From an uncultured Candidatus Saccharibacteria bacterium (GTDB taxonomy: Bacteria > Patescibacteriota > Saccharimonadia > Saccharimonadales > JACDBH01), in assembly GCA_964644965.1 (NCBI GenBank), contig CAZXYN010000002.1, positions 67,075 through 131,074 on the forward strand: a DNA stretch of 64,000 bases, written 5' to 3'. Both the position numbers and the translations under genes were made by a program. The notes under the pieces are model-generated. The model was not told the DNA's origin and did not search any database. It was given only the letters and a program-made list of their open reading frames with translations. Positions 1,588-52,832 of the stretch are shown here, piece after piece. Positions within the stretch are counted from its first letter, which is position 1; the number at the start of each line of letters is the position of its first letter.

Positions 1588-1821
1588 TAACACTTGAAGT
1601 ATAGAAAAATTACGGTGTAAATAGTACAATCGTGATAAGCGTTTAACGCCTAGACCTAAACCAAGCAATTGGCATGGTTGATAAATCCATAGAGAAATAA
1701 AAGCTCGTCATGAGTCGCTATTTCTCTATGGTCGGTACTGGAAACGGTATCGGGTAGCTTCGGCTATCGCTCGTGGCGGGCTTTTTATATAGCATCACAA
1801 CTACCTGAAAGGAGATAAGGC

Positions 1822-8082: not shown

Positions 8083-8251
8083 GCAATCAGTATACAATAT
8101 CAATTTGGGGTGAGTAGCATAACAGTGGTCAAGTAGTAGAATTTTGCCCCATAGGGAACAGCAGTTGTCTTTATTATAGCAAAAAGCTTATGTTTTGTCA
8201 ACGTATGAAAAATCTGAAATAAAAATGACCTCCGAAATAGGCCATTCATTG

Positions 8252-8406
8252 TATGGGGCGAGTGATGGGAATCGCCCACATTCTGCGGGCCCGAAACTTC
8301 ACGGTGTGAAACAAGTTTCACCCGGAAGGTTTCCTTGCGAAATGCCACAGGCATTTCTCACCCACGACCTTAGGCGTGGGTTCAAGTTCCATTGACCAGC
8401 CCATAA
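8252..8406 (-). repeat. tRNA-flanking element H, ending in a 23-nt copy of the tRNA-His 3' end
   Basis: 8252-8274 is identical to 8439-8461 (T-loop CGATT through CCA plus 2 nt). 8361-8371 repeats the tRNA-His variable/T-stem segment at 8464-8474. An ~86 nt hairpin-rich insert lies between these two pieces. An inverted, well-formed T-arm/acceptor/CCA-like end (GTGGG-TTCAAGT-TCCAT-TGACCAG-C-CCA) lies on the plus strand at about 8374-8403. Confidence 0.7.
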
Positions 8407-8429
8407 ACAAAAAACGACCCTTTGGGTCA
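8407..8429 (-). terminator. intrinsic terminator after tRNA-His
   Basis: Read on the minus strand: GACCC-AAA-GGGTC followed by TTTTTTG. Confidence 0.65.
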
Positions 8430-8440
8430 TTTCTTATTTA

Positions 8441-8518
8441 TGGGGCGAGTGATGGGAATCGAACCCACGACCTTCGGAACCACAACCCGACGCTCTAACC
8501 AACTGAGCTACACCCGCC
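8441..8518 (-). tRNA. tRNA-His (anticodon GTG) with encoded G-1 and CCA
   Basis: Reverse complement is G-GCGGGTG TA GCTC AGTTGGTTA GAGC G TCGGG TTGTGGT TCCGA AGGTC GTGGG TTCGATT CCCAT CACTCGC C CCA. Coordinates cross-checked against ORF 8434..8718. Confidence 0.9.
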
Positions 8519-8708
8519 TCGTCGGAACGTAATATTGTGGTTCCTGTATTGCCGACAAAACAAGTTTGCTCGGACAATACTAGAAACCTCAATAAGTTTC
8601 CTCCTCTTAAGTTTTCCAAACAGAACAAGTTCTTGGTTTGAAAAACTTGAAAAGCCCAAAAAGGGCAAGAACAGGGGTAATTATATCTGTTTGCGGTTGT
8701 TTTTGCAA
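8519..8708 (-). promoter_or_regulatory. promoter plus conserved structured leader of the tRNA-His unit
   Basis: On the minus strand: TTGCAA (8703-8708), 17 nt, TATAAT (8680-8685), then TACCCCTGTT. Leader modules are CAAACCAAG-hairpin-TGTTTGG..AAGAGGAGG (about 8598-8645), a hairpin with loop GCAAACTTGTTTTG (about 8545-8580), and TCCGACGA abutting the tRNA. Confidence 0.55.
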
Positions 8709-8822
8709 TGGGTGGCAAGGTAAACAGCTCATGGTAAACTTGTCAATGAAGGTGGTCACAGGCAATGATATTGCCGTTGTGTATACTGGAAGTAATCAGG
8801 CAATAAAGGAAAGTAGATACAA

Positions 8823-9374
8823 ATGGCAAAAAGATCAAATTCATCAGATAAATCAGTCCAAAAAATCTTCATGGTGCTGGCGGCAATTGTAGCTGCAGCA
8901 CTATTTGTGATTGGCGGGTTGGCACTGTGGGCGCATAACTTTACAACCAACATGGTGCGTACTGAGCTGGCGGCGCAAAAGATTTATTTTCCACAAGCCG
9001 GGGCGCCGAACTTTTTGCCAGAAGATTATCCAGAATTGCAGAAGTATGCTGGCCAGCTGGTAGACAACGGCGAAAAGGCAAAAGCCTATGCCAATGGCTA
9101 TATCGGTCGCCATCTGCATAACACGGCCGATGGCAAAACTTATGCGGAGGTCAGTACTCTGGCCAGGCAAAACCCGAATGACGAAACGCTGCAACAACAG
9201 AGAGAAAGCTTACTACAAGGAGAGACTTTGCGGGGTATTCTTCTTGGCACGGGGTATGCCTTTGGTACGATAGGCATGCTGGCGGGTATCGCGGCCTGGG
9301 TGTTGTTTGGTCTTGGTGCTGTGCTGGTGCTAGTAAGCATATTTTATGCCAAGCGTTACTACGGACGAGGCTAG
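8823..9374 (+). CDS. membrane protein, unknown function (N- and C-terminal TM helices)
   Basis: ORF track, 183 aa. AAGGAAAG upstream of the ATG. Confidence 0.55.
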   Translation: MAKRSNSSDKSVQKIFMVLAAIVAAALFVIGGLALWAHNFTTNMVRTELAAQKIYFPQAGAPNFLPEDYPELQKYAGQLVDNGEKAKAYANGYIGRHLHNTADGKTYAEVSTLARQNPNDETLQQQRESLLQGETLRGILLGTGYAFGTIGMLAGIAAWVLFGLGAVLVLVSIFYAKRYYGRG

Positions 9375-9975
9375 AGTAGTGACACTCAAAGGAATCACAT
9401 TAAAGCAGTCGCTGCCATACATCATGATTGCGGCTGGTGTGGTGGGCCTGTTAGCCTCGCTGATGCTGACGCATGACAAAATCCAGGTGCTGCAAAACCC
9501 AGATTATGATCCGTTCTGTAACATTAACCCGATATTTAGCTGTCGTTCGGTAATGGTAACCGAACAGGCAAGTCTGTTGGGGCTGCCTAACACGGTGTTT
9601 GGTGTCATAGGGTTTACAGCGCTGGTGACATTGGGGTTTTTGCTGGCTGCTGGCGCCCAAATAAAACGTTGGTTGTGGCTGGTTGTGCAACTGTCGGCTA
9701 CGGTTGGCGTAATATTTATGCACTATTTATTCTTCCAGGCAGTGTATAGAATCAATGCAATTTGCCTGTGGTGTTTTGCTACTTGGATAGTGGTGATCCC
9801 GGTGTTCTGGTACATCACACTTTATAACCTGCGCGAAGGGCATATCAGGCTAAAGAATGATAAAATTGCAACTTTTTTGCAAAAACACCACGGCAATATG
9901 TTGCTTGCCTGGTACGGTGTTATTTTTATGATTTTGCTGGTTGAGTTCTGGTATTACTGGGAGACTTTGATTTGA
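9346..9975 (+). CDS. vitamin K epoxide reductase (VKOR)-family protein
   Basis: ORF track, 209 aa (alternative starts GTG 9379 or ATG 9424). Loop cysteines CNINPIFSC and the CLWC redox motif in a 4-5 TM protein. Confidence 0.7.
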   Translation: MPSVTTDEARVVTLKGITLKQSLPYIMIAAGVVGLLASLMLTHDKIQVLQNPDYDPFCNINPIFSCRSVMVTEQASLLGLPNTVFGVIGFTALVTLGFLLAAGAQIKRWLWLVVQLSATVGVIFMHYLFFQAVYRINAICLWCFATWIVVIPVFWYITLYNLREGHIRLKNDKIATFLQKHHGNMLLAWYGVIFMILLVEFWYYWETLI

Positions 9976-10010
9976 AAATAAATATACCTGCTTTGTAAGC
10001 AGGTATATTT

Positions 10011-10169
10011 ATTGGTACCCCGGGAGGGAATTTGACTCACAAGTCAAAATGCTCTGCATTTTTGCTCGCGAGCCCGGCGCGGCGTGCATCGGGTGCCGAT
10101 GCACAGGCCTTACGCCTGTTCGATTCCCCGCAGGCCAAGCAGTTGGCCTGCTGTCTCTGGGTACCAATT
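10011..10169 (-). repeat. tRNA-flanking element R, ending in a 21-nt copy of the tRNA-Arg(TCT) 3' end
   Basis: 10011-10031 is identical to 10199-10219 (ATTCCCTCCCGGGGTACCA plus 2 nt, read on the minus strand). The GC-richer body has several hairpins (TGCATCG-GGTGC-CGATGCA; ACAGGC-CTTA-GCCTGT; CAGGCCAA-GCAG-TTGGCCTG). It also has an inverted T-loop box TGTTCGATTCC and a plus-strand ...GGGTACCA end. Confidence 0.7.
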
Positions 10170-10193
10170 CAAAAGCCCCACTTTCGTGAGGCT
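10170..10193 (-). terminator. intrinsic terminator after tRNA-Arg(TCT)
   Basis: Read on the minus strand: AGCCTCAC-GAAA-GTGGGGCT followed by TTTTG. Confidence 0.6.
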
Positions 10194-10200
10194 CATGAAT

Positions 10201-10277
10201 TGGTACCCCGGGAGGGAATCGAACCCCCGACCTGTGGGATAGAAGCCCATTGCTCTAATCCGCTGAGCTACCGGGGC
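10201..10277 (-). tRNA. tRNA-Arg (anticodon TCT)
   Basis: Reverse complement is GCCCCGG TA GCTC AGCGGATTA GAGC A ATGGG CTTCTAT CCCAC AGGTC GGGGG TTCGATT CCCTC CCGGGGT A CCA. Coordinates cross-checked against ORF 10032..10292. Confidence 0.9.
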
Positions 10278-10461
10278 GTCGTCGAAGTGTGATGGTGAGA
10301 TAATCCTAGTAGCGACAAAAAATTTGCTCACTACTAGTAATTATCTCACTAAGCCTTCTCCTCTCAAAACCCCAAACAGCAGCCAGCTGCTTGGTTTGGT
10401 GTTTTGTGCAAGAACATTCCTTAACAGGGGTGATTATACCATGTTATAACTGTTATTGTAA
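10278..10461 (-). promoter_or_regulatory. promoter plus conserved structured leader of the tRNA-Arg(TCT) unit
   Basis: On the minus strand: TTACAA (10456-10461), 17 nt, TGGTATAAT (-10 at 10433-10438), then CACCCCTGTT. Leader modules are ACCAAACCAAG-hairpin-TGTTTGGGGTTTTGAGAGGAGA (about 10353-10402), a long hairpin with loop GCAAATTTTTTG (about 10295-10349), and CACTTCGACGAC abutting the tRNA. Confidence 0.55.
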
Positions 10462-10500
10462 GCACAAACGTGATACGCTGGGGTAACAAGAGGGAATTTT

Positions 10501-11802
10501 ATGGAAGAAAATCAGCCAACGCCACCACAATTTGTGAAGCCAGAGACAAAGCAAGTAGAGGTAGAAAAGGTACCTGATGCGCCTCTGCCATCAGAGCCAG
10601 ACACACCGCCTAAGAAACCAAAATCTAAGAAAAAGCTACTAATCATCATTGGAATAGTAGTGGCAGTGCTACTAACTGCAGGCGCACTTTGGTACTTTTT
10701 GATCCGTGACAGCGGGCAGACCGCAGAAACCAGCCAGGAACAACAAGTAGCAGAAGTCACTGAGCGAGAGTACGAAGGGCTACCAGATACCGTTGCCTAT
10801 GCTTACCGCGACATCGACTCTGAGCCGTACAAAATCTACACTCGTCCTGCCGTATCGGGCGAAAGAGCAGAAGCAATGACGCTTCCAGCAGGTGTGTATA
10901 TATCTCACAGTGCTGTACATGGCAACCAAGTAGTGTTCGTGACTGAGCCTGAAGCTGCTACTGATGAAGTACTAACAATCTGGTACAGTGACGATGCTGG
11001 TGCTTCGTACAGAGAGATTTACAAGGATGAAGCGATCACAGCAGAAGACAGTATTGGCACACAAGTAACTAGCATTATATTTTCGACAGACGGTAGTGTA
11101 GTTTTGGCGGGAATATTACCTGCTGACGGTGGCAATCAAGTTACCGAACTATCTTTAGATGGTTTAAATCAACAGAAGGTTATATTTACGACTGACGACA
11201 GGGGTGTTGCCTTAGAAGGTTACGACCGTGCCAACCAAAAGACCCTGTACTTTTCTGGTTGCTACAACTGTGACGGAATTATTCACAAAACCCTGAATCT
11301 TTATGATGAATCATCAGACTCCACAGTTACTGTCTATGATTCGCCAGTCGTTCAGCTAAATGTGGCGGTAAAGGACGATTTTTCCAAAGTACTGATATCA
11401 GAGGGTACAAGTGATGAATCAACAGCAGATGAGCTCGGTGGTGGTTTAGCTGCGCCATATACCATCAAGACCATCGCAGTAGAGGAGGGTGCAGTGGCAG
11501 AGACCTTAACCCAAGTCGATGAGCTGGTGACTGAGGTTGGCTATACCTATGCTGATACAGGTTATTACGTAACTCAGCAGGAGATTATACGACTCAATGA
11601 CGCTACGCCGTCACTTGCTTATGAGACGGCTGGGATTATCATAAACAGCGGTGCGTACTTTGTTGGTGAAGATAGCGTTGTCGTAGCGGTTGGTGAGTTC
11701 TTTGACTTTGCACTAGACTATTTCAAGTCGGGTTCTGAAGCACCGGTAAATGTACTGCAAGGCGACGCCAATACTATAGTTTTCGGTGTTCCGATAAAGT
11801 AG
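10501..11802 (+). CDS. membrane-anchored extracytoplasmic protein, unknown function
   Basis: ORF track, 433 aa. Pro/Lys-rich N-terminus, one TM helix (LLIIIGIVVAVLLTAGALWYFLI), then a large beta-rich ectodomain. Confidence 0.6.
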   Translation: MEENQPTPPQFVKPETKQVEVEKVPDAPLPSEPDTPPKKPKSKKKLLIIIGIVVAVLLTAGALWYFLIRDSGQTAETSQEQQVAEVTEREYEGLPDTVAYAYRDIDSEPYKIYTRPAVSGERAEAMTLPAGVYISHSAVHGNQVVFVTEPEAATDEVLTIWYSDDAGASYREIYKDEAITAEDSIGTQVTSIIFSTDGSVVLAGILPADGGNQVTELSLDGLNQQKVIFTTDDRGVALEGYDRANQKTLYFSGCYNCDGIIHKTLNLYDESSDSTVTVYDSPVVQLNVAVKDDFSKVLISEGTSDESTADELGGGLAAPYTIKTIAVEEGAVAETLTQVDELVTEVGYTYADTGYYVTQQEIIRLNDATPSLAYETAGIIINSGAYFVGEDSVVVAVGEFFDFALDYFKSGSEAPVNVLQGDANTIVFGVPIK

Positions 11803-11885
11803 GCAAGATTACTAAACAGCCAAAAAACCGAGGCAAGCTCGGTTCTCTGGTTGGTGCGGCATAGTATTGCAGGTTAGAACTTTAT

Positions 11886-12290
11886 TTATTGCTCACGTTC
11901 CAAGTATTTAATTTCAACTAATGGCATGGTCGTATAAATTGAATCAGGATCAAAATCAATACCTTTACGAGGTAGCCCATATATATTGACGCAACGTCCG
12001 GTCATAATTTCCTTATCAGGATTACCCTGTCTCCGAACAATGACTTCCGTGGATGGTAGGCGATATTCCCCGTAGTAGGGCTGTGTTTCCGATAGTCTTG
12101 TCACCAAACTAGGTCCTTCTTTAGAGGGTTCGACAACGTAACAAGCGCCGCTTTCAGTTCTAAGCATGAGCGCCAACAAATTACGATTACCTCGCCAATC
12201 GGATAATCGTTCAGTGCTAGCACCGTCAATCTGCAAGCGGTGTATTAAACTAGTCAGTTCTTGTTCGACCATATTCTCAAATCCAAGCAT
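11886..12290 (-). CDS. hypothetical protein
   Basis: ORF track, 134 aa. It starts 9 nt downstream of tRNA-Gly on the same strand. I recognise no family. Confidence 0.5.
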   Translation of the reverse strand: MLGFENMVEQELTSLIHRLQIDGASTERLSDWRGNRNLLALMLRTESGACYVVEPSKEGPSLVTRLSETQPYYGEYRLPSTEVIVRRQGNPDKEIMTGRCVNIYGLPRKGIDFDPDSIYTTMPLVEIKYLEREQ

Positions 12291-12299
12291 TAATCTATT

Positions 12300-12374
12300 T
12301 GGTGCGGGTGGGGGGAATCGAACCCCCGTCTCAAGTTTGGAAAACTTGCATACTAACCGTTGTACTACACCCGC
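12300..12374 (-). tRNA. tRNA-Gly (anticodon TCC)
   Basis: Reverse complement is GCGGGTG TA GTAC AACGGTTA GTAT G CAAGT TTTCCAA ACTTG AGAC GGGGG TTCGATT CCCCC CACCCGC A CCA. Coordinates cross-checked against ORF 12166..12378. Confidence 0.9.
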
Positions 12375-12500
12375 ATAAAGTCTGAATTGTTAAAGGGTTC
12401 GATTCCGAATCGACTCACCTTCGGCGAGCCCCGAACTTCTGCTTTACAAGCATAGCTTGCAAGTGAAGATTCGTTTCCGACTGCTTTTGAGCAGTTCTCA
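12375..12500 (-). repeat. tRNA-flanking element G (body), between a tRNA-Gly 5' pseudo-copy and the intact tRNA-Gly
   Basis: Read on the minus strand it starts TGAGAAC directly after the pseudo T-stem. It contains GAAGTTCGGGGCTCGCCGAAGG and the palindrome TCGATTC-G-GAATCGA. The T-loop box GGTTCGATTCC is on the plus strand. Confidence 0.6.
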
Positions 12501-12552
12501 CCCCGTCTCAAGTCTCCGAAAACTTGCATACTAACCGTTGTGCTACACCCGC
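12501..12552 (-). pseudogene. tRNA-Gly-like 5' fragment (acceptor to T-stem 5' strand) with an 8-nt anticodon loop
   Basis: Reverse complement is GCGGGTGTAGCACAACGGTTAGTATGCAAGTTTTCGGAGACTTGAGACGGGG. It differs from tRNA-Gly only by one D-stem change (GTAC to GCAC, which breaks a pair) and the loop TTTCCAA to TTTCGGAG. Homology stops exactly at the T-loop. An extended -10 (TGATATAAT, 12577-12582) lies upstream. Confidence 0.65.
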
Positions 12553-12650
12553 GATAAATCCTTGGCAACAGGGGTAATTATATCACTTTAAGGTAATAAG
12601 TAAAACAGCCCCGCTAAAGTTTGCCGAGGCTGTTGCGACCAGTTTTTTAT

Positions 12651-15600
12651 TTAGGCTTCGCGCTTTTTGATGACTACAAAGCTGGTTGCTACGATGAACA
12701 GAGCAAAAGCTGTTGCCAGCAGGACGGGTGTACCGGTATCGGCCAGTGTGCTGGCTCCAAGTACCTGCGGATTGCTTGGATCACAGCCTTCAGTTTCTGG
12801 TGGGTAAGCAACTGAAGTATCAGCAGTTGGGTTGACTTGCATGACAGTGCTCGCAGATGGGCGTAAGTTGCCACCAAAGTCAGATGGATCTTCTACCCAT
12901 TCACCACCTACTAGCTTCCAGCCTGGCCAATCAGGAAGGATTGTGTCAGTGCCTGGCCATAGGGTTTCGGATGAGTAGGTATTAGTCACAGGGTCGTAGT
13001 CAACATCGGCTAGTGCAAATACTTGAGTGTCGACAAGTATGCCAGCTGGATCACCCGCAGCATTACCAGCTTCTGTTAGCCAATCGAGCGTGAACTGCGT
13101 TGGTGTAAACATCGCTTGTGGAACAGACGGGGTGACTGTCCACTGAAGGTAAGGGAAGCTGTTTCGGCAGACTGGCGTTGCAGCATACTCGATTGTCAAC
13201 TGATGATTACCAAAGTTTTTGTTCTCGAAGCTGCGACCAAGTCGACTAACCCATACAAAGTAACAGCCATCGAATACATCTGGATTTGGCTTGGTTTGTA
13301 GCCAGCCAGCTTGCGGCACTTCACACACTTTGTATTTGCCGTAATCCAGTTGACCGAAGTTGTAGGCACCATTCTCATTAGTAGGGGTAGTTGTAGGCTC
13401 GCCGTTAAAACCACAGTCTTTTTCTAGTTCTATGTATCTTTCACTATTTTCGTTTTGGTAGACATAGCTGCTAACCTCTTGCTCATCAAAGGCAGGTTGC
13501 TCTACTCTACATCCCCATTTCTGAATGGTTATTTCCCAGCCAGCAAGTGCTGGCTCTTCTTCGTCCCACTTGCCGTTGGCATTAACATCGCTAAATTTGT
13601 AGCCACTGATGTCACCCTTTTTGTCGTTCACAAATACACATAGGTATTCTTCGCCAATTTCGGCATTGAACTCAGTACCTTGTCCAACAGTTTTCCAGCC
13701 ATACCAGGTCTTTTCTTTACAGTACGAATCGGTGAGTACCCAGTTGTCTGGAAGATTCTTTTCTTCTACTGTTACGTCTCCCGCCTTTATATCAAAGCTT
13801 TCGGTTTGCCAGTTTTTCAGCCCAAAGTATTCTGTGTTGTTGTGTCCTGCTGGATTTAGTTTGAATTGGAACTCGTCGGTTTGGTTTGCGCCGTAGGCAA
13901 CTTTTTTAACAGTTACTTTTGGAGCAATATCTTCGTTCGTGTAGATACATAGAACATCCTGATCAAGGTCAAGATTAACAGTTGCGAACCATCCATTGAA
14001 ATCAGAGACTTTATGAAGGCCACTGTAGCAAGAAATGTCAGTCAGCTTATAGCCAGGTGTAGGGACTTCCCAAAGTTTGTGTTTTCCTGCGTTTACTTCG
14101 ATAGTTTCCCAGTGATCAAGTTTTGTTTGATTAGCAATAAGCTTGTCGTCGAAATCATGCGAATCAAGTGTTCCGCCGTGGTTGTTCTTGACAATCTTCT
14201 TTACGGTAATTGTTGCAGGCTGGTCGTCATTAGTAAGCGTACATTTGTAATCGACGCCTACTTCATCTGCCTTAACATATATAAGCCCAAAGAAGTACTC
14301 GCAGTCGCCAGCCACATTTGTAAGTTTGTAGCCGTTCTGCTGCACTTCCCATACGTAGTAAGTCCCAGTGCTCGCAAGTGGGTGAGGAACCTCAGAAGTG
14401 ACTTCCACAGCACCAAGTGGAAGAGGGATGGATGTTACGTAGAGTGGGAAGTTGTTGTCTTGCAATGTCCCGCCATTATCATTAACAACTACTTTAGTAA
14501 CGGTCAGGGTTGGTGCTGTAGCAGTGTTTACGATCGTACAGACAACATCCTCGTCTAGAGCTAACGTGACTTTGTTACCACTTACCCAGCTAGAGCTGCC
14601 GGTACATTGCCAGTCGCCTGCTGCATACCCTGCTACGCCACCAGTTTCTGACAGGGTGTATTCAAGGTTTGCTTTTGCGTCTGTAGCAGCGAATCCGCCA
14701 ACACCACTTAGCTCAGTGCCGTTTGTAGGTGTTGCTTTAAGTGTCCAAGCAGTTTTGTTTGCTGGTTGACCATATTGATTTACGACTTCTTTTACAAGAG
14801 TTAATGTAGGAGCGATGTCTTGATTCTTAACCTTGCAGGTCACATCCTTATTAGCTTCAAGTTGAACAGGATGTTGTACATCAATCCAAGTGTAGTCAGT
14901 TTTGTAACACTTAATATATTTGAGCTCGTAACCTGGTGTAACCAGTTCACTTACCACATATGTACCGACGGCAAGTTCGTGAGTACCCCAGGTAGAATTT
15001 TGTCCGTTTAGGGTTGGGGTAAATGCTTCATACCCTGCGGTTCCCCCATGGTTATTCTCTACTTCTTTTATGAGTCGCAGCGTACCAGTAGGGAGCTTTT
15101 CGTTCTCGTATTCACAGGTAACATTAGGTTTCTGAGCTGTGAGAGTGATTTCCGTCACGCCGCTTGTTTTATTGATGCTCGTGTTATTGCTTGGATCGCA
15201 ATCAATATCCTTTACTTTCCAGCCTGCAGGTACAAGCTCCGTAACAGTATATTTTGTGTCAAGCGGGACATTAGAGATTGTTTTCTCGCGTGGAGTGTTT
15301 TGCACATCATCATCGTACAAAGTAAATGATTCGCTATTTGGAATTGTGCTTGTGAACGGGAACCCAATGTTGCTTTTTCCGTTATCAACATCTTTTTTTA
15401 TAGTTATACTGCCATATCGTGGAACAGATTTATTTCCAAAATATAGCTCTTCTCTCTGGTTACTGTGCTTAAGTTCAAAGCTCCAACAGCGTGATTCCTC
15501 TGAAGCGCTATTTGGCGATGTATTACCCACGCTGCCGCTCGTATTAGCGTTCGGGTATGTTTGAGTCCAGCCTGCCAACTTCTCTTCACATACGTAGTAG

Positions 15601-15920
15601 TCGTCATAATCGAGATTACTCCAATATACCCAGTCTGAGTCATGTGATGTTCGGTAACTTTGATATACCCATTGGCCTTGTTGGCGTTGATATAGCTTTA
15701 GCATGAACCCAGCTAGATCATCGTTCTCACCGTTGTCTAATTGACCATTACCGTTTGTATCTTCAAATTTCTTGACCTTTATAGATCCATCGTCTTGGGT
15801 TGCGCCTACCGTATCACTCAGTACGAGGGGCACCAGACTACCGGCCAAAACCTGAACCAATATCAATATACCCGCCGATACAAAACCAGTTCGTTTTAAG
15901 ATTTGTGAAACACCATTCAT
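12651..15920 (-). CDS. very large cell-surface repeat protein (SdrD/Cna-B-like and prealbumin-fold repeats) with an LPXTG-like LADTG sorting signal
   Basis: ORF track 12651..15959; I prefer the ATG at 15920 (MNGVSQILK..., GGAGG 7 nt upstream). Signal peptide. DTNGNGQLDNGENDDLAGF and DVNANGKWDEEEPALAGW calcium-type B-repeat motifs. Many ~90 aa repeats. The C-terminus is LADTG, a hydrophobic helix, then KKREA. Confidence 0.8.
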   Translation of the reverse strand: MNGVSQILKRTGFVSAGILILVQVLAGSLVPLVLSDTVGATQDDGSIKVKKFEDTNGNGQLDNGENDDLAGFMLKLYQRQQGQWVYQSYRTSHDSDWVYWSNLDYDDYYVCEEKLAGWTQTYPNANTSGSVGNTSPNSASEESRCWSFELKHSNQREELYFGNKSVPRYGSITIKKDVDNGKSNIGFPFTSTIPNSESFTLYDDDVQNTPREKTISNVPLDTKYTVTELVPAGWKVKDIDCDPSNNTSINKTSGVTEITLTAQKPNVTCEYENEKLPTGTLRLIKEVENNHGGTAGYEAFTPTLNGQNSTWGTHELAVGTYVVSELVTPGYELKYIKCYKTDYTWIDVQHPVQLEANKDVTCKVKNQDIAPTLTLVKEVVNQYGQPANKTAWTLKATPTNGTELSGVGGFAATDAKANLEYTLSETGGVAGYAAGDWQCTGSSSWVSGNKVTLALDEDVVCTIVNTATAPTLTVTKVVVNDNGGTLQDNNFPLYVTSIPLPLGAVEVTSEVPHPLASTGTYYVWEVQQNGYKLTNVAGDCEYFFGLIYVKADEVGVDYKCTLTNDDQPATITVKKIVKNNHGGTLDSHDFDDKLIANQTKLDHWETIEVNAGKHKLWEVPTPGYKLTDISCYSGLHKVSDFNGWFATVNLDLDQDVLCIYTNEDIAPKVTVKKVAYGANQTDEFQFKLNPAGHNNTEYFGLKNWQTESFDIKAGDVTVEEKNLPDNWVLTDSYCKEKTWYGWKTVGQGTEFNAEIGEEYLCVFVNDKKGDISGYKFSDVNANGKWDEEEPALAGWEITIQKWGCRVEQPAFDEQEVSSYVYQNENSERYIELEKDCGFNGEPTTTPTNENGAYNFGQLDYGKYKVCEVPQAGWLQTKPNPDVFDGCYFVWVSRLGRSFENKNFGNHQLTIEYAATPVCRNSFPYLQWTVTPSVPQAMFTPTQFTLDWLTEAGNAAGDPAGILVDTQVFALADVDYDPVTNTYSSETLWPGTDTILPDWPGWKLVGGEWVEDPSDFGGNLRPSASTVMQVNPTADTSVAYPPETEGCDPSNPQVLGASTLADTGTPVLLATAFALFIVATSFVVIKKREA

Positions 15921-16056
15921 AATTGCCTCCTCACATCTATGAATTACTCCACTTTGCAACTAGTGATTATGCACCGATAATACAAATATGCAAGCACGAG
16001 CGGAAATAGCAGTATATTTATCTATAAAATAGAAGCAACAAGTTCTAAATAATTAA

Positions 16057-17580
16057 CTATAAATCGTGAGTTACGGTGATGTGCGCACCGAGCGAATTCA
16101 GTCGGTCGGCGAGGTCTTCGTAGCCGCGATTAATAGTGTAGACATTGCGGAGCATTGACGTGCCAGGAGCAGCTAGCATACCGATGAGCAGCATGACGGC
16201 TGGGCGAATACCGCTTGGTGCAACCAGGTCGGTTGCTCGCCATTTGGTCGGTCCATCTACGTAGACACGGTGTGGGTCAGCAAGTTCCAGGGTGACACCA
16301 ATTTTCTTCATCTCTGTATACATAAGACTTCGGTCTTCATACACCCAGTCGTGGATAAGTGTGCGGCCCTTTGCGACGGCAGCGATTGGCACAAAGTACG
16401 GCAAATGATCCATATTGAGGCCAGGGAAGACATTCGGGTGGATTTTGTCGACAGGTGCTATTAATTTGCCACCGTGCTTCTTGATCGATATGTCTACCAG
16501 CTCTGTCTGGCCGTTTTCGGCTTTGTAGCTTTTGCTAACGGTGAACTGTAGCCCCATTTTCTCAAGCTTCAGTAGTTCTAGCTCTAAGAACTCTAACGGC
16601 GCTCTGCGAACAGTGATAGCTGAGTCGGTAGTAACGGCAGCGGCGATGAAGGTCATGCCTTCTACCGGATCTTCACTAACAGCGTAGGAAACATTTTTCT
16701 TGATATGACTACGTCCGTGAACGCGCAGGGTGCTGGTGCCAATGCCCTCAATTTTTATGCCAAGTTTTTCTAGATAGAAGCACAAATCTTGCACCATGTA
16801 GTTGGCGCTGGCCATTTTGATTACTGTAATTCCTTCGGTGCCAGCTGCCGCCATCAGAATATTCTCTGTAGTGGTGTCACCAGATTCGTAGAGGACTACG
16901 TTTCGCTTGGGCAAGTGTTTCTTGACGTTGACATGATAGTTGCCAACACGAGTAGATATATTGATACCAAATTCTTCTAAGCCGTAGAGATGAGGCAATA
17001 CTGTTCGGCGACCGAGTTCGCAACCACCAGCATACGGGATCTTGAACTGCTTTTCATGGTGCATTAACGAGCCGATGAACATAATCACACTACGGGTTTT
17101 GCGGGCGGCTTCTTTGTCCATACTATCGATATCAAACTTGGTTGGTGGTTTGATCTCTAGATCGTTACCGGGCAACCAGCGAGTTTTGACGCCAATACTT
17201 TCTAGCACCTCGATGAGTCGATTAACCTCCTCGATGCGGGCAACCGAGCGAAGTACAGTAGTCCCTTTGTTGAGCAGACTGGCGCAAATCAGTGCAACCG
17301 CTGCGTTCTTACTTGTCTTGAGTGTAATCTCACCCTTGAGCTCATGTCCACCCTCGATGCGGAGGTTTACGGCACCAGTGCCCAGAGAAACTATCTGTTT
17401 ATTCAGTACATCGCTAATTCGACCCAGCATGTCCATGCTGAGGTTTTGACCACCTTTTTCGATACGGTTTACAGCAGACTGAGATGTCTTGAGCTGTTTG
17501 GCAAACTCGGCTTGGGTTAGACCCTTTTCCTGTCGGATCTGATAAATTAACTGGCCAATTTTCTCGGAAGTGTTATTCAT
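16057..17580 (-). CDS. murA: UDP-N-acetylglucosamine 1-carboxyvinyltransferase fused to an N-terminal XRE-type HTH domain
   Basis: ORF track 16057..17652; I prefer the start MNNTSEKIGQLIY at 17580. HTH: GLTQAEFAKQLKTSQSAVNRIEKG. MurA body: LKTSKNAAVALICASLL, active-site loop YAGGCELGRRTV with Cys retained, and C-terminal RGYEDLADRLNSLGA. Confidence 0.85.
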   Translation of the reverse strand: MNNTSEKIGQLIYQIRQEKGLTQAEFAKQLKTSQSAVNRIEKGGQNLSMDMLGRISDVLNKQIVSLGTGAVNLRIEGGHELKGEITLKTSKNAAVALICASLLNKGTTVLRSVARIEEVNRLIEVLESIGVKTRWLPGNDLEIKPPTKFDIDSMDKEAARKTRSVIMFIGSLMHHEKQFKIPYAGGCELGRRTVLPHLYGLEEFGINISTRVGNYHVNVKKHLPKRNVVLYESGDTTTENILMAAAGTEGITVIKMASANYMVQDLCFYLEKLGIKIEGIGTSTLRVHGRSHIKKNVSYAVSEDPVEGMTFIAAAVTTDSAITVRRAPLEFLELELLKLEKMGLQFTVSKSYKAENGQTELVDISIKKHGGKLIAPVDKIHPNVFPGLNMDHLPYFVPIAAVAKGRTLIHDWVYEDRSLMYTEMKKIGVTLELADPHRVYVDGPTKWRATDLVAPSGIRPAVMLLIGMLAAPGTSMLRNVYTINRGYEDLADRLNSLGAHITVTHDL

Positions 17581-17722
17581 AGGCTGATTTAATATACCAT
17601 TTATGATATAAAATGTCGATATTGTTTTTGTTTTTGCTGTTCCTGTATACAATACTCCTATGATATAACCTCGCGCAAGCAGAAACTCCGCTATACTATA
17701 TAAACCAGAGAGGGTTGAAATT

Positions 17723-23269: not shown

Positions 23270-23385
23270 GCAACACTCCTTTTACATTACTTATCTAGTA
23301 TATACCCAGTGCTGAGAATACGCATAACAAATTAGCTAACAATACTACCAATGAAAAAACCGGTCACAAGGACCGGCGCTTTCAT

Positions 23386-23508
23386 TGGTACACCCGGCAG
23401 GATTCGAGTTATTCTGCGCCTGGCTAAAATGCAAGCATTAGCCGAGGCGGCCAAGCAAGGAAAACTCGGATACCCACTGGGTATCCTCGCCTATCGGTTC
23501 GAATCAAT
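23386..23508 (-). repeat. tRNA-flanking element A2 behind tRNA-Arg(TCG), ending in a non-identical tRNA-like 3' end
   Basis: Read on the minus strand it ends ...CTCGAAT CCTGC CGGGTGT A CCA (23386-23408). 23448-23502 is the reverse-strand equivalent of the tRNA-Pro element core 1297-1351: the 14-nt and 18-nt flanks are identical and the hairpin differs by paired changes on both strands of the stem. Confidence 0.65.
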
Positions 23509-23554
23509 CAAAATAAAAGTGGCGGTATAACGACAAAAGTCATTAGACCGCCAC
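23509..23554 (-). terminator. intrinsic terminator abutting tRNA-Arg(TCG)
   Basis: Read on the minus strand: GTGGCGGT...ACCGCCAC followed by TTTTATTTT. Confidence 0.6.
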
Positions 23555-23640: not shown

Positions 23641-23988
23641 TTATATGCTATTTAACTGATTTTTCCTTTTGTGCGTCCTGAACCTATGGCAGTTAGCGCA
23701 AACAAGCTCGCATTTCTTGATCTCTTCTTGTACCTGCCTAAAACTACCATTATTTATGAGTCGACTTATGGTGTTTATCTTCTCACCGGTACCTGTGTGG
23801 TCAAAATCTGTAACATACGAAGGGTACTGTACACCACAATCCGTACAAGCAGTAGAGTTTTTTAGCTCATAAACCCATTCCCGAACTGACTCACGTTTTT
23901 TGTAGGCTTTATTTATGTAATATTCTCGGTTTGCGTAATAGTGCTTGCGTATAGCCTCTCGCTGTTTTTCCTTATCTTTCCATGCCAT
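23641..23988 (-). CDS. HNH endonuclease-family protein
   Basis: ORF track, 115 aa. CTDCG...DFDH...CANCHRFRTH is an HNH/zinc-finger pattern. Its stop lies 10 nt from tRNA-Arg(TCG). Confidence 0.7.
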   Translation of the reverse strand: MAWKDKEKQREAIRKHYYANREYYINKAYKKRESVREWVYELKNSTACTDCGVQYPSYVTDFDHTGTGEKINTISRLINNGSFRQVQEEIKKCELVCANCHRFRTHKRKNQLNSI

Positions 23989-28345: not shown

Positions 28346-28525
28346 GGAGGGCCAGGAGGGACTCGCCTTGCGACAATTCAAAAATATAATTGTTAACGCA
28401 ACCCTTTGATATGCCATTGGCATATCACGGGCAGGGTGCGGGGAATGCTCCAAGCATTCCCGTTCAAGTCCCTTCCTATCCACGTACCATATAAAAAATG
28501 CCACCACTTGGTGACATTCTTTATA
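28346..28525 (-). repeat. tRNA-flanking element K (includes the proximal terminator), ending in a 20-nt copy of the tRNA-Lys 3' end
   Basis: 28346-28365 is identical to 28527-28546 (CGAGTCCCTCCTGGCCCTCC on the minus strand); one extra C then precedes the final CA. The body has hairpins GATATGCCA/TGGCATATC and GGGAATGCT-CCA-AGCATTCCC, an inverted T-loop box CGTTCAAGTCC, and a plus-strand ...CACGTACCA end. The proximal terminator (28493-28516) pairs with a G-U only when read in tRNA sense. A second terminator lies at about 28300-28330. Confidence 0.7.
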
Positions 28526-43198: not shown

Positions 43199-43318
43199 TT
43201 TTCAATTCTCAATTTCTAATTTTCATTCAATTTTCAAATCCCAATGATTCAAGCGGTTTGAAAATTAAAACATTGCGGCATTGATTGAAAATTGCAAAAT
43301 TGTAAATTGAAAATTTCG
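43199..43318. repeat. AT-rich palindromic intergenic element, copy 1 (pyk-pgk spacer)
   Basis: 43271-43315 (CATTGCGGCATTGATTGAAAATTGCAAAATTGTAAATTGAAAATT) matches 44722-44766 at 43 of 45 positions. The left arm (about 43199-43250) is an imperfect inverted copy of the right arm. Confidence 0.7.
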
Positions 43319-44647: not shown

Positions 44648-44768
44648 TTTTCGAACGTTCCAATTTACAATTTTCTTTTAATTACCAAATTTCAATGGTT
44701 CAAATGGTTTGCAAATTGGAGCATTGCGACATTGATTAAAAATTGCAAAATTGTAAATTGAAAATTCC
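44648..44768. repeat. AT-rich palindromic intergenic element, copy 2 (pgk-tpiA spacer)
   Basis: See copy 1. The right arm is 44722-44766. The left arm CCAATTTACAATTTTC... is complementary to it. Confidence 0.7.
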
Positions 44769-52430: not shown

Positions 52431-52832
52431 GGGGCTGTTTAGCTCGACATTTGGACATTTACAAGTTGGTATAAGCAGGCCGGTAGTCTGAACGTTATCC
52501 GGACAAACCTTCTAACTGCAAACGCATTAGATCGCGTACAAGCTATGTTCAATGACGCCTTTGGTATCAAAGAACGTGCTTTCGCAACAGCTGCCTAATT
52601 TTAGTGTAGCGACTGTTAGTTCGACATCAGATAGAACAAATCAGTCTCATATTTTTCTGATTGCTTAAATATTACGACCCGTAATGTTTACTAAGACTTA
52701 TAGGGTTGCAGCGATGGAATTTTTTGTTGATTTCTATCTTTCATAGCTAAAGAAACCAAGCAAATCAAATAAGCCTGTAGAAACCCAGCAAGTAACCGAA
52801 TGGACGCGGCTTCATCGCCGCCAGCTCCACCA
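52431..52832 (+). ncRNA. ssrA: tmRNA (SsrA)
   Basis: 5' GGGGCTG... pairs with 3' CAGCTCC-A-CCA. T-arm GCGGC-TTCATC-GCCGC. The tag reading frame 52518-52598 encodes ANALDRVQAMFNDAFGIKERAFATAA*. Promoter TTGCAT (52368-52373), 17 nt, TACAAT (52391-52396). Coordinates cross-checked against ORF 52800..53519. Confidence 0.85.

Follow-up and report, generated by a model that had tools for sequence, protein, structure and literature searches.

We analyzed a stretch of 64,000 nucleotides (nt) from a Candidatus Saccharibacteria genome (contig CAZXYN010000002.1, positions 67,075 to 131,074; hereafter the window), in which a tRNA-Gly gene is preceded by a truncated copy of itself and by a small structured element, here named element I. 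All features of the locus lie on the minus strand and are given in the 5' to 3' direction of that strand. A promoter-like site (12577..12604), composed of TTTACT, a 16-nt spacer and TATAAT with a TG extension, is followed by a displaced copy of the tRNA-Gly 5' part (12501..12552; repeat family D8), by the 87-nt core of element I (12414..12500; TGAGAAC...GGTGAG) with its three hairpins P1, P2 and P3, and by a small palindrome from the T-arm of the resident tRNA, which consists of the T-loop remainder TCGATTC and the inverted copy GGAATCGAACCC (12395..12413). An AT-rich spacer of 20 nt (12375..12394) provides the new 5' flank of the intact tRNA-Gly(tcc) gene (12300..12374), which begins 126 nt past the end of the copy, has its CCA end encoded, was called by ARAGORN and scores 73.1 bits with the Rfam tRNA model. 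The spacer shows low conservation relative to locus L002, the closest relative, and the spacers at other loci often contain TATAAT-like boxes. An open reading frame (ORF) of 134 aa (11886-12290) without a Pfam match starts 10 nt beyond the tRNA, and a terminator-like hairpin (11820-11850) comes after it, the two together covering 11820..12290; this hairpin is the probable end of the tRNA-Gly transcription unit.

The displaced copy (minus strand, 12552..12501; GCGGGTGTAGCACAACGGTTAGTATGCAAGTTTTCGGAGACTTGAGACGGGG) is 52 nt long, corresponds to tRNA positions 1-51 (canonical 1-53) and is identical to tRNA-Gly(tcc) in 48 of 52 aligned columns. Homology ends at G53, the final base of the 5' T-stem strand, where TGAGAAC... 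takes over. A preliminary description of this DNA had reported such a 52-nt copy behind a promoter-like site with a stop at the T-stem/T-loop boundary, and the alignment bears this out. It also agrees that the only differences are a D-stem change (T11>C) that abolishes pair 11-24 and the anticodon loop, which reads TTTCGGAG instead of TTTCCAA and is one base longer; the TTTCGGAG loop can just as well be depicted as a 7-bp stem capped by a UCGG tetraloop. The 8-nt anticodon loop had been pointed out as unusual in itself. Several other 5' copies (e.g. at L017, L030, L117 and L142) are 100% identical to their tRNA, and the longer loop is a lineage-specific change in a dead copy and not a class property. 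L002 has the orthologous Gly insertion including the odd anticodon loop, with one further A>G change that keeps the 7-bp stem via a U.G pair. The body of about 125 nt does replace the homology as described, yet it had been left anonymous, whereas it holds the covarying 87-nt element, the T-loop remainder with its inverted copy, and the spacer.

The minus-strand TTTACT-16-TATAAT (12604..12577) is the sole sigma-70-like site within 11800-12800 and lies upstream of tRNA-Gly; a single site of this kind is not above chance, shuffled sequences giving a mean of 1.3. Its -10 block GATATAATTACCCCTGTT recurs at the head of the tRNA-His leader (8670-8697 vs 12567-12594; repeat family D9). Because no other promoter-like site precedes tRNA-Gly, co-transcription of the partial copy and tRNA-Gly from this upstream promoter is plausible. 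The promoter would then transcribe the pseudo-half, element I, tRNA-Gly and the 134-aa ORF as one RNA, from which RNase P would release the tRNA.

Structure and distribution of element I

The initial motif set comprised five loci with a 5' copy beside a tRNA and the sequence downstream of the window tRNA-His, and in these six sequences TGAGAA opens the common motif directly after the T-stem strand. Their MAFFT/RNAalifold fold consists of three hairpins with 32 pairs, 17 of which show compensatory changes. With 21 copies, 96.8% of the cells were paired and 26 of the 32 pairs showed double changes; none of 500 shuffles reached this covariation, and slid controls were paired to only 27-44%. The top ten mutual-information column pairs among 121 distinct copies all fall within the model, and the same search of these copies gave no signal for a pseudoknot. 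The conserved G.U pairs assign the structure to the tRNA strand. In the consensus fold, P1 begins 3 nt from the 5' end of the element and P3 finishes about 5 nt from its 3' end. The element ends, TGAGA... and ...GTGAC(C), are not inverted repeats, and at the junction 0-2 nt of the target are lost and a short duplication is absent. The core at tRNA-Gly scores 83.2 bits with covariance model R1 and 69.1 bits (E=2.9e-16) with R2, an independent covariance model built solely from metagenome copies.

Eighty related loci were retrieved via the neighbouring MurA-like gene (70-89% identity), nearly all of them from Candidatus Saccharibacteria or Patescibacteria genomes. The covariance-model search gave 17 strong matches in the window and these 80 Saccharibacteria loci. 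A degenerate pattern of element I matched at least 120 metagenome contigs, and 126 further matches were found in 100 metagenome loci. In all, about 140 copies were recorded, some in genomes of Candidatus Saccharibacteria and others in metagenome contigs without assignment. Nearly all of them share the strand of the tRNA, as do all tRNA-linked ones, and lie inside a partial tRNA copy adjoining an intact tRNA, 69-97 nt downstream or 19-66 nt upstream of the latter, at tRNAs of 15 amino-acid identities. Element I was not matched in Rfam 15 scans of the window and 14 other element I loci at gathering thresholds, and we found no description of it in the literature.

The tRNA-linked copies occur in two layouts. 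The 5' layout (n=33), to which the Gly locus belongs, has a copy that usually runs from tRNA nt 1 exactly up to the element with 84-100% identity and ends at canonical position 53 (62-64 in long-arm tRNAs), less often at 24-25. The element is followed by the remaining T-loop, by an inverted copy of this loop and by an AT-rich spacer of 17-30 nt. CC(n)GATTCGAACC(CC) is the same feature 3' of element I in most 5'-type copies, and the inverted copy tracks the resident T-loop variant, as with CTTGAACC at tRNA-Leu. The 3' layout (n=55) has the order tRNA, terminator, inverted piece of positions ~42-66, small loop, direct piece of positions ~42-54 (a variable-region/T-stem copy), element I, positions 56/57-77 and a second terminator. 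Here the copies of 56/57-77 are mostly 21/21 identical and end in CCA, and the whole forms a direct-inverted-direct triplication with its turnarounds at hairpins. The two layouts are circular permutations of one part order.

The window contains a second copy of element I, in the 3' layout after tRNA-His (8254..8440, minus strand; 104.3 bits with both R1 and R2). Its parts, all on the minus strand, are terminator 1 (8404-8440), an inverted copy of the tRNA-His 3' part (8375-8403), a loop with a variable-region/T-stem copy (8361-8374), the core (8274-8360), the 3' copy (8254-8273) and terminator 2 (8217-8253). Appendages of about 160-190 nt are in fact present on 6 of the 7 tRNA genes of the window, and two of them hold element I. 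At the tRNAs for Pro, His, Arg(tct), Arg(tcg) and Lys, the 3' part of the gene that starts in the T-loop is repeated 162-188 nt downstream; the Gly locus is thus the mirror image of the other loci, as the preliminary description had it. The appendages of Pro, Arg(tct), Arg(tcg) and Lys (1245-1404, 10011-10200, 23384-23554 and 28346-28525), each ending in its own tRNA 3' copy, were considered as diverged element I and rejected, a full scan with R2 giving only a weak 22-bit match on the opposite strand at Lys. The bodies of the Pro and Arg(tcg) appendages have a 55-nt block in common (78%; also at L017:14166-14180), and judging from such sequences the T-loop niche seems to be shared by several element families. 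Partial tRNA copies at L027:6150-6300, L040:16660-16780, L045:7020-7220 and L064:4420-4520 also contain smaller inserts, which follow either the GG of the D-loop or the T-stem; the L045 unit is tandemly repeated. These inserts have a GGCG(N)AGCC mini-hairpin with a GNA-type triloop motif in common. GNA-type triloops are very stable in single-stranded DNA.

A minority of copies does not lie next to a tRNA (L131:4998-5090, L132, L152 and L173; L096 and L153; L092 and L100). One such group lies in a conserved unit of about 180 nt (..TCACGGGTGACGTTTGGTGGG | I | ...CTAGGGGAAACCAAAGCGGCAGGACCCGC) without an Rfam match, and in L092 and L100 element I stands between direct repeats of about 40 nt ending in ..AGAGGG, which form short arrays.

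Tandem tRNA duplications are common in bacteria, and the Gly locus might have arisen by plain tandem duplication of tRNA-Gly and decay of the upstream copy, with random filler as the 126-nt body. However, none of the 59 related genomes with tRNA-Gly(tcc) has two full copies of this gene, the body is a conserved element found at 15 kinds of tRNA, and the break falls at the same nucleotide as elsewhere. We consider this account extremely improbable, in agreement with the preliminary description, which had argued against simple tandem duplication and for a T-loop breakpoint used from both sides; the G53 | TGAGA junction recurs in 88 tRNA-linked copies elsewhere.

A second possibility is that the copy is half of an intron-containing, split, permuted or frameshift-suppressor-like tRNA that uses the 8-nt loop, its 5' half being joined to the downstream T-loop/3' part; such joining would remove the second 5' half together with element I and the spacer. 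Archaeal non-canonical introns likewise occupy positions 53/54 and 25/26, and the conservation of the changed anticodon loop in L002 points the same way. Like element I, the archaeal introns of the bulge-helix-bulge type are short structured inserts at 25/26 and 53/54 with related sequences at different tRNAs, and the non-canonical ones have been proposed to transpose among tRNA genes. However, element I occurs in bacteria, always beside an intact copy and never in a complete tRNA: after in-silico removal of 134 copies with 10 splice variants each, ARAGORN found no junction-spanning tRNA. The junctions lie beside the T-stem and P1/P3, no bulge-helix-bulge was seen there, and no helix joins the two junctions in the consensus fold. 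At the Gly locus neither ARAGORN nor the Rfam tRNA model called a tRNA other than 12300-12374, so the tRNA-finder check proposed earlier revealed no alternative complete cloverleaf. No second 3' acceptor strand is present after the element, and the copy, which lacks both this strand and the 5' bases of the T-loop, represents neither a complete cloverleaf nor a frameshift-suppressor tRNA. Moreover, splicing would yield nothing new because most 5' copies do not differ from the intact tRNA. Searching 12200-12700 with Rfam 15 at E<=10 gave only tRNA-related matches and no group I intron or small ribozyme (hammerhead, twister, pistol, hatchet, HDV-like and hairpin ribozymes were covered). Bacterial tRNA group I introns resemble element I in being structured, patchily distributed inserts in tRNA genes; they differ in size (>200 nt vs 87 nt) and position (anticodon loop vs T-loop), and the copy interrupted by element I is incomplete. 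Taken together, we regard a spliced or split tRNA as very improbable.

Signs of mobility and the target site

Copies of element I that are 92-95% identical occur at different tRNAs and in both layouts (Glu/Met; His/Val; Gln in the 5' layout/Arg in the 3' layout). Their likeness stops exactly at TGAGA... and ...GTGAC(C), outside of which the flanks follow the resident tRNA. Therefore, the mobile unit is the core of about 87 nt, and the flanks derived from the tRNA form afresh at every site. In only 5 of 72 cases did a copy have its closest relative at the same tRNA and in the same layout, the shuffled mean being 2.25. Four independent nested copies were observed, every one after the ...CGGG of the outer copy's P3, a site that resembles the T-stem target. 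Some pseudo-tRNAs contain two or three copies, and one locus has a perfect tandem unit. The base before the element (-1) is G in all 133 copies; position -2 is G in 111, and position -3 is G in 97 and A in 30. As a separate observation, the differences between 5' copies and their tRNAs cluster, as complex small indels, at positions 20-27 and in the anticodon and variable loops (e.g. L056, L084, L120, L159, L162 and L097). Such clustered indels in dead 5' copies could be footprints of earlier insertions and excisions; the cluster at positions 20-27 coincides with the second insertion site.

A direct repeat of a tRNA 3' end starting from the T-loop is the classical signature of integrase insertion. 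The repeats might accordingly be attL/attR scars of tRNA-targeting integrative elements, such as phages, integrative and conjugative elements or elements like the cis-mobilizable elements (CIMEs), with element I as an attP-proximal leftover after deletion of most of the element. As in integrative elements and CIMEs, an intact tRNA stands beside a T-loop-starting 3' direct repeat and tandem units exist; terminators are sometimes duplicated together with the 3' end (L017, L147, L149 and L177). The units are, however, merely 185-188 nt long, and the mirror-image 5' layout duplicates nt 1-53. All tRNA pieces, including the inverted arm, match the resident tRNA and not a carried fragment, and insertions are also found at position 26, in the variable region and within element I itself. 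No integrase or other recombinase was found in the scanned ORFs of the window or near the copies, and the diagnostic pattern of element I had no match among the 2.9 million viral contigs of IMG/VR. A phage origin was rejected on this null result and because blastn of 11800-16000 against 50,697 phage records matched the tRNA alone. On balance, scars of integrative elements are an improbable source of these repeats.

A tight operon of tRNA-Gly, tRNA-Arg(tct) and tRNA-His is common in relatives, with Gly and Arg within 40 nt in 27 of 59 loci and spacers of 12 and 21 nt in L016:11552-11813. In the window (8441-12374) the three genes are about 2 kb apart on each side. The genes between them encode a 134-aa and a 433-aa ORF without Pfam match, a VKOR-family protein and a membrane protein, and each downstream tRNA of the split operon has its own promoter and leader. 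L002 is without elements or appendages after tRNA-Arg(tct) and tRNA-His. A comparison of filled and empty orthologous sites for the Arg(tcg) and His insertions found no sufficiently close relative among the loci analyzed.

We also noted a conserved leader of about 150 nt between promoter and first tRNA (window ~1018-1167, 8518-8697 and 10278-10420), which is likewise present in L002, L025, L027, L030, L042, L106, L156 and L161. It comprises a hairpin, the Shine-Dalgarno-like UUGAGAGGAG, a long hairpin tipped by CAAACUUGUUUUG and ...CGACGA directly before the tRNA, and has no Rfam match. The leader is copied before the window Arg(tct) and His genes, which in relatives have one common operon leader.

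Proposed interpretation as a small mobile element

Element I is a family with a defined structure, boundaries and target that is spread over many tRNAs, inserts into itself and has no linked protein gene. We think it probable, with some reserve, that the Gly locus is an old insertion of this small non-coding, strand-specific mobile element into the T-loop of tRNA-Gly, with a coupled partial duplication. As one part of this interpretation, the pseudo-copy would be the original tRNA-Gly 5' part, left at its promoter after the element and a fresh 5' part had arrived. Element I would land on the 3' side of a stem strand rich in G (with an invariable G at -1 and in general GG or RGG), mostly between G53 and the T-loop and less often after 25/26 or the variable region, or inside P3 of another copy. 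Each insertion would be accompanied by a partial duplication that draws on the resident tRNA and in many cases includes a short inverted piece, and one intact tRNA would therefore always survive. In the 5' layout the resulting order would be original promoter, original 5' part, element I, T-loop remainder with inverted T-loop, new spacer and intact tRNA; in the 3' layout it would be tRNA, terminator, inverted 3' part, short T-stem copy, element I, 3' copy and terminator. Since no insert-free triplication was found among 266 tRNAs, the rearrangement is either coupled to insertion or the only survivable outcome when an essential gene is hit. The duplications might arise by template switching at the palindromes of T-arm and terminator; alternatively, they might be the sole survivors, an uncompensated hit on a single-copy tRNA being lethal.

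Tandem inversion duplications, for which work in Salmonella reportedly offers a parallel, and quasipalindrome template-switch mutations resemble the 3' layout in that both give direct-inverted-direct triplications. The turnarounds of the 3' layout lie at hairpins, one at the terminator loop and one at a mini-palindrome that precedes the variable region, and the 5' layout turns at the T-arm. Template switching at palindromes is a known bacterial mechanism (PMC7202029), but unlike the mutations described there, the rearrangements at element I are tied to the arrival of a specific element.

Among known kinds of element, the features of element I best fit miniature derivatives of IS200/IS605-type single-strand transposons. 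Like the IS200/IS605-derived PATEs and like REPINs, it is about 100 nt long, non-coding, strand-specific and hairpin-rich with hairpins near both ends, inserts 3' of a short motif without terminal inverted repeats or short target-site duplications, and appears non-autonomous, surviving as diverged populations in which the stems are kept. Its end hairpins, strand specificity, invariant G at -1 (133 of 133) and lack of terminal inverted repeats and target-site duplications match the structural definition of this group. In element I, unlike in PATEs and REPINs, the long central hairpin and the junction bases are also conserved, the target lies in tRNA genes, and insertion brings target duplications of 20-65 nt, often with an inverted segment. 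By contrast, the marks of a miniature inverted-repeat transposable element derived from a DDE transposon, namely terminal inverted repeats and a target-site duplication of fixed length, are absent. As a non-autonomous element, element I would need a factor supplied in trans to move. Y1/HUH single-strand transposases, with which the strand specificity and the end hairpins agree, are a lead and a candidate enzyme type; in contrast to PATEs and REPINs, neither the 64-kb window nor the surroundings of the copies in 200 loci yielded a Y1/HUH transposase (TnpA or RAYT), a search that did not extend to whole genomes.

Several observations weigh against this interpretation. Transposase, integrase and reverse transcriptase Pfam domains were absent from the 50 scanned ORFs among the 58 ORFs of at least 110 aa in the window, which include ordinary housekeeping genes. 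No recurrent protein was found among 575 clustered ORFs within 2.5 kb of element I, beyond the bait housekeeping genes and spurious ORFs. Long target duplications are foreign to the IS200/IS605 family. Copies that share a locus resemble each other no more than copies taken from separate loci do (likeness of 0.60 vs 0.66), so there is no sign of recent bursts. The covariation itself is no proof of a function at the RNA level because template switching during replication is able to make and repair hairpins (PMC8794818). The Gly copy has acquired two compensatory double changes since the split from L002 (C-G to U-A in P1 and A-U to G-C in P2), which hints at a constraint not expected of a dead selfish insert; this constraint may perhaps come from its position inside the tRNA-Gly transcript, although changes of this kind can likewise result from template switching. 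Finally, a single event would have to yield direct or direct-inverted-direct duplications of about 185 nt, the repeat period being alike in the 5' layout and the 3' layout (185.2 +/- 7.8 nt and 188.0 +/- 7.2 nt).

As an alternative, element I might be a non-coding RNA module of benefit to the host, acting for instance in tRNA-precursor processing, stability or regulation; it would be produced within tRNA transcripts, with the tRNA pieces as handles for processing enzymes. This is compatible with a mobile origin. The structure is strongly conserved over about 140 copies, the 21-nt 3' copies are mostly perfect including the CCA end, and the Gly locus, compensatory changes included, is 91% identical between the window and L002, compared with about 75% for neighbouring genes. 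Because the locus has a single promoter-like site, element I must also be transcribed for tRNA-Gly to be expressed. Against a host function stand the patchy distribution among close relatives, the position of the 3'-layout element behind a strong terminator, the nested or multiple copies within dead tRNA copies, the want of a fixed partner tRNA and the decay of the inverted arms, which are often unable to pair with the 3' copy. We judge a host RNA module unlikely, but as deserving serious consideration. A function of the 3' layout as a tRNA-like cloverleaf or minihelix was rejected, as the inverted arms show decay and in many cases are unable to pair with the acceptor strand.

In a more speculative reading, the unit of about 185 nt would be the DNA footprint of a tiny circular nucleic acid, either a circle of single-stranded DNA or a viroid-like RNA. 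Such a circle, composed of the three-hairpin element and a tRNA-derived hairpin, would attack the T-loop of tRNA genes, by insertion at the RNA level (ribozyme-like or mediated by a ligase) and subsequent copying into DNA, or by HUH-type nicking of the T-arm hairpin in single-stranded DNA. The equal unit length, the circularly permuted layouts, the perfect tandem unit and the one-strand structure with conserved G.U pairs are leads in this direction, but we hold the idea to be doubtful and give it a small chance. In a related reading, element I and the 21-nt tRNA 3' copy might serve as a scaffold-plus-guide RNA for a nuclease. If true, the circle would represent a new class of tRNA-parasitic replicon or mobile RNA.

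Further features of the window and significance

The three 134-aa ORFs beside tRNAs of the window are mutually unrelated. An ORF of 115 aa directly upstream of tRNA-Arg(tcg) (23641-23988, minus strand) contains CxxC...DFDH...CANCH and looks HNH-nuclease-like by eye; it gave no significant Pfam match. An Rfam LOOT RNA (1653-1768, plus strand; 75.7 bits against a gathering score of 46.4) lies some 250 nt past the tRNA-Pro appendage and has a terminator-like 3' end of its own; the window itself is assigned to Saccharibacteria via its relatives. A tmRNA is present at 52431-52832 (plus strand; Rfam, 67.8 bits). The MurA-like enolpyruvyl transferase (16057-17652, minus strand) appears from its sequence to have an N-terminal helix-turn-helix (XRE-like) segment; relatives align from residue ~7-25 to 531 with 70-89% identity. 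Lastly, the genes for phosphoglycerate kinase and triosephosphate isomerase are closely preceded by a direct repeat of 106 nt (84% identity; 43210-43315 and 44661-44766).

In Saccharibacteria and other ultrasmall bacteria the genome measures about 1 Mb and is under strong streamlining, yet six of the seven tRNA genes in the window bear an appendage. Element I is an abundant, structured and uncatalogued family that exploits the tRNA T-arm, the most conserved hairpin in biology. Partial tRNA copies of the kind that surround it can mislead tRNA annotation and searches for att sites of genomic islands, and its covariance model provides a marker for tracking these lineages in metagenomes. The family could explain the break-up of ancestral tRNA operons such as Gly-Arg-His and could show how essential single-copy tRNA genes tolerate invasion via coupled partial duplication. 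It could also reveal a new way of moving for non-coding DNA or RNA.

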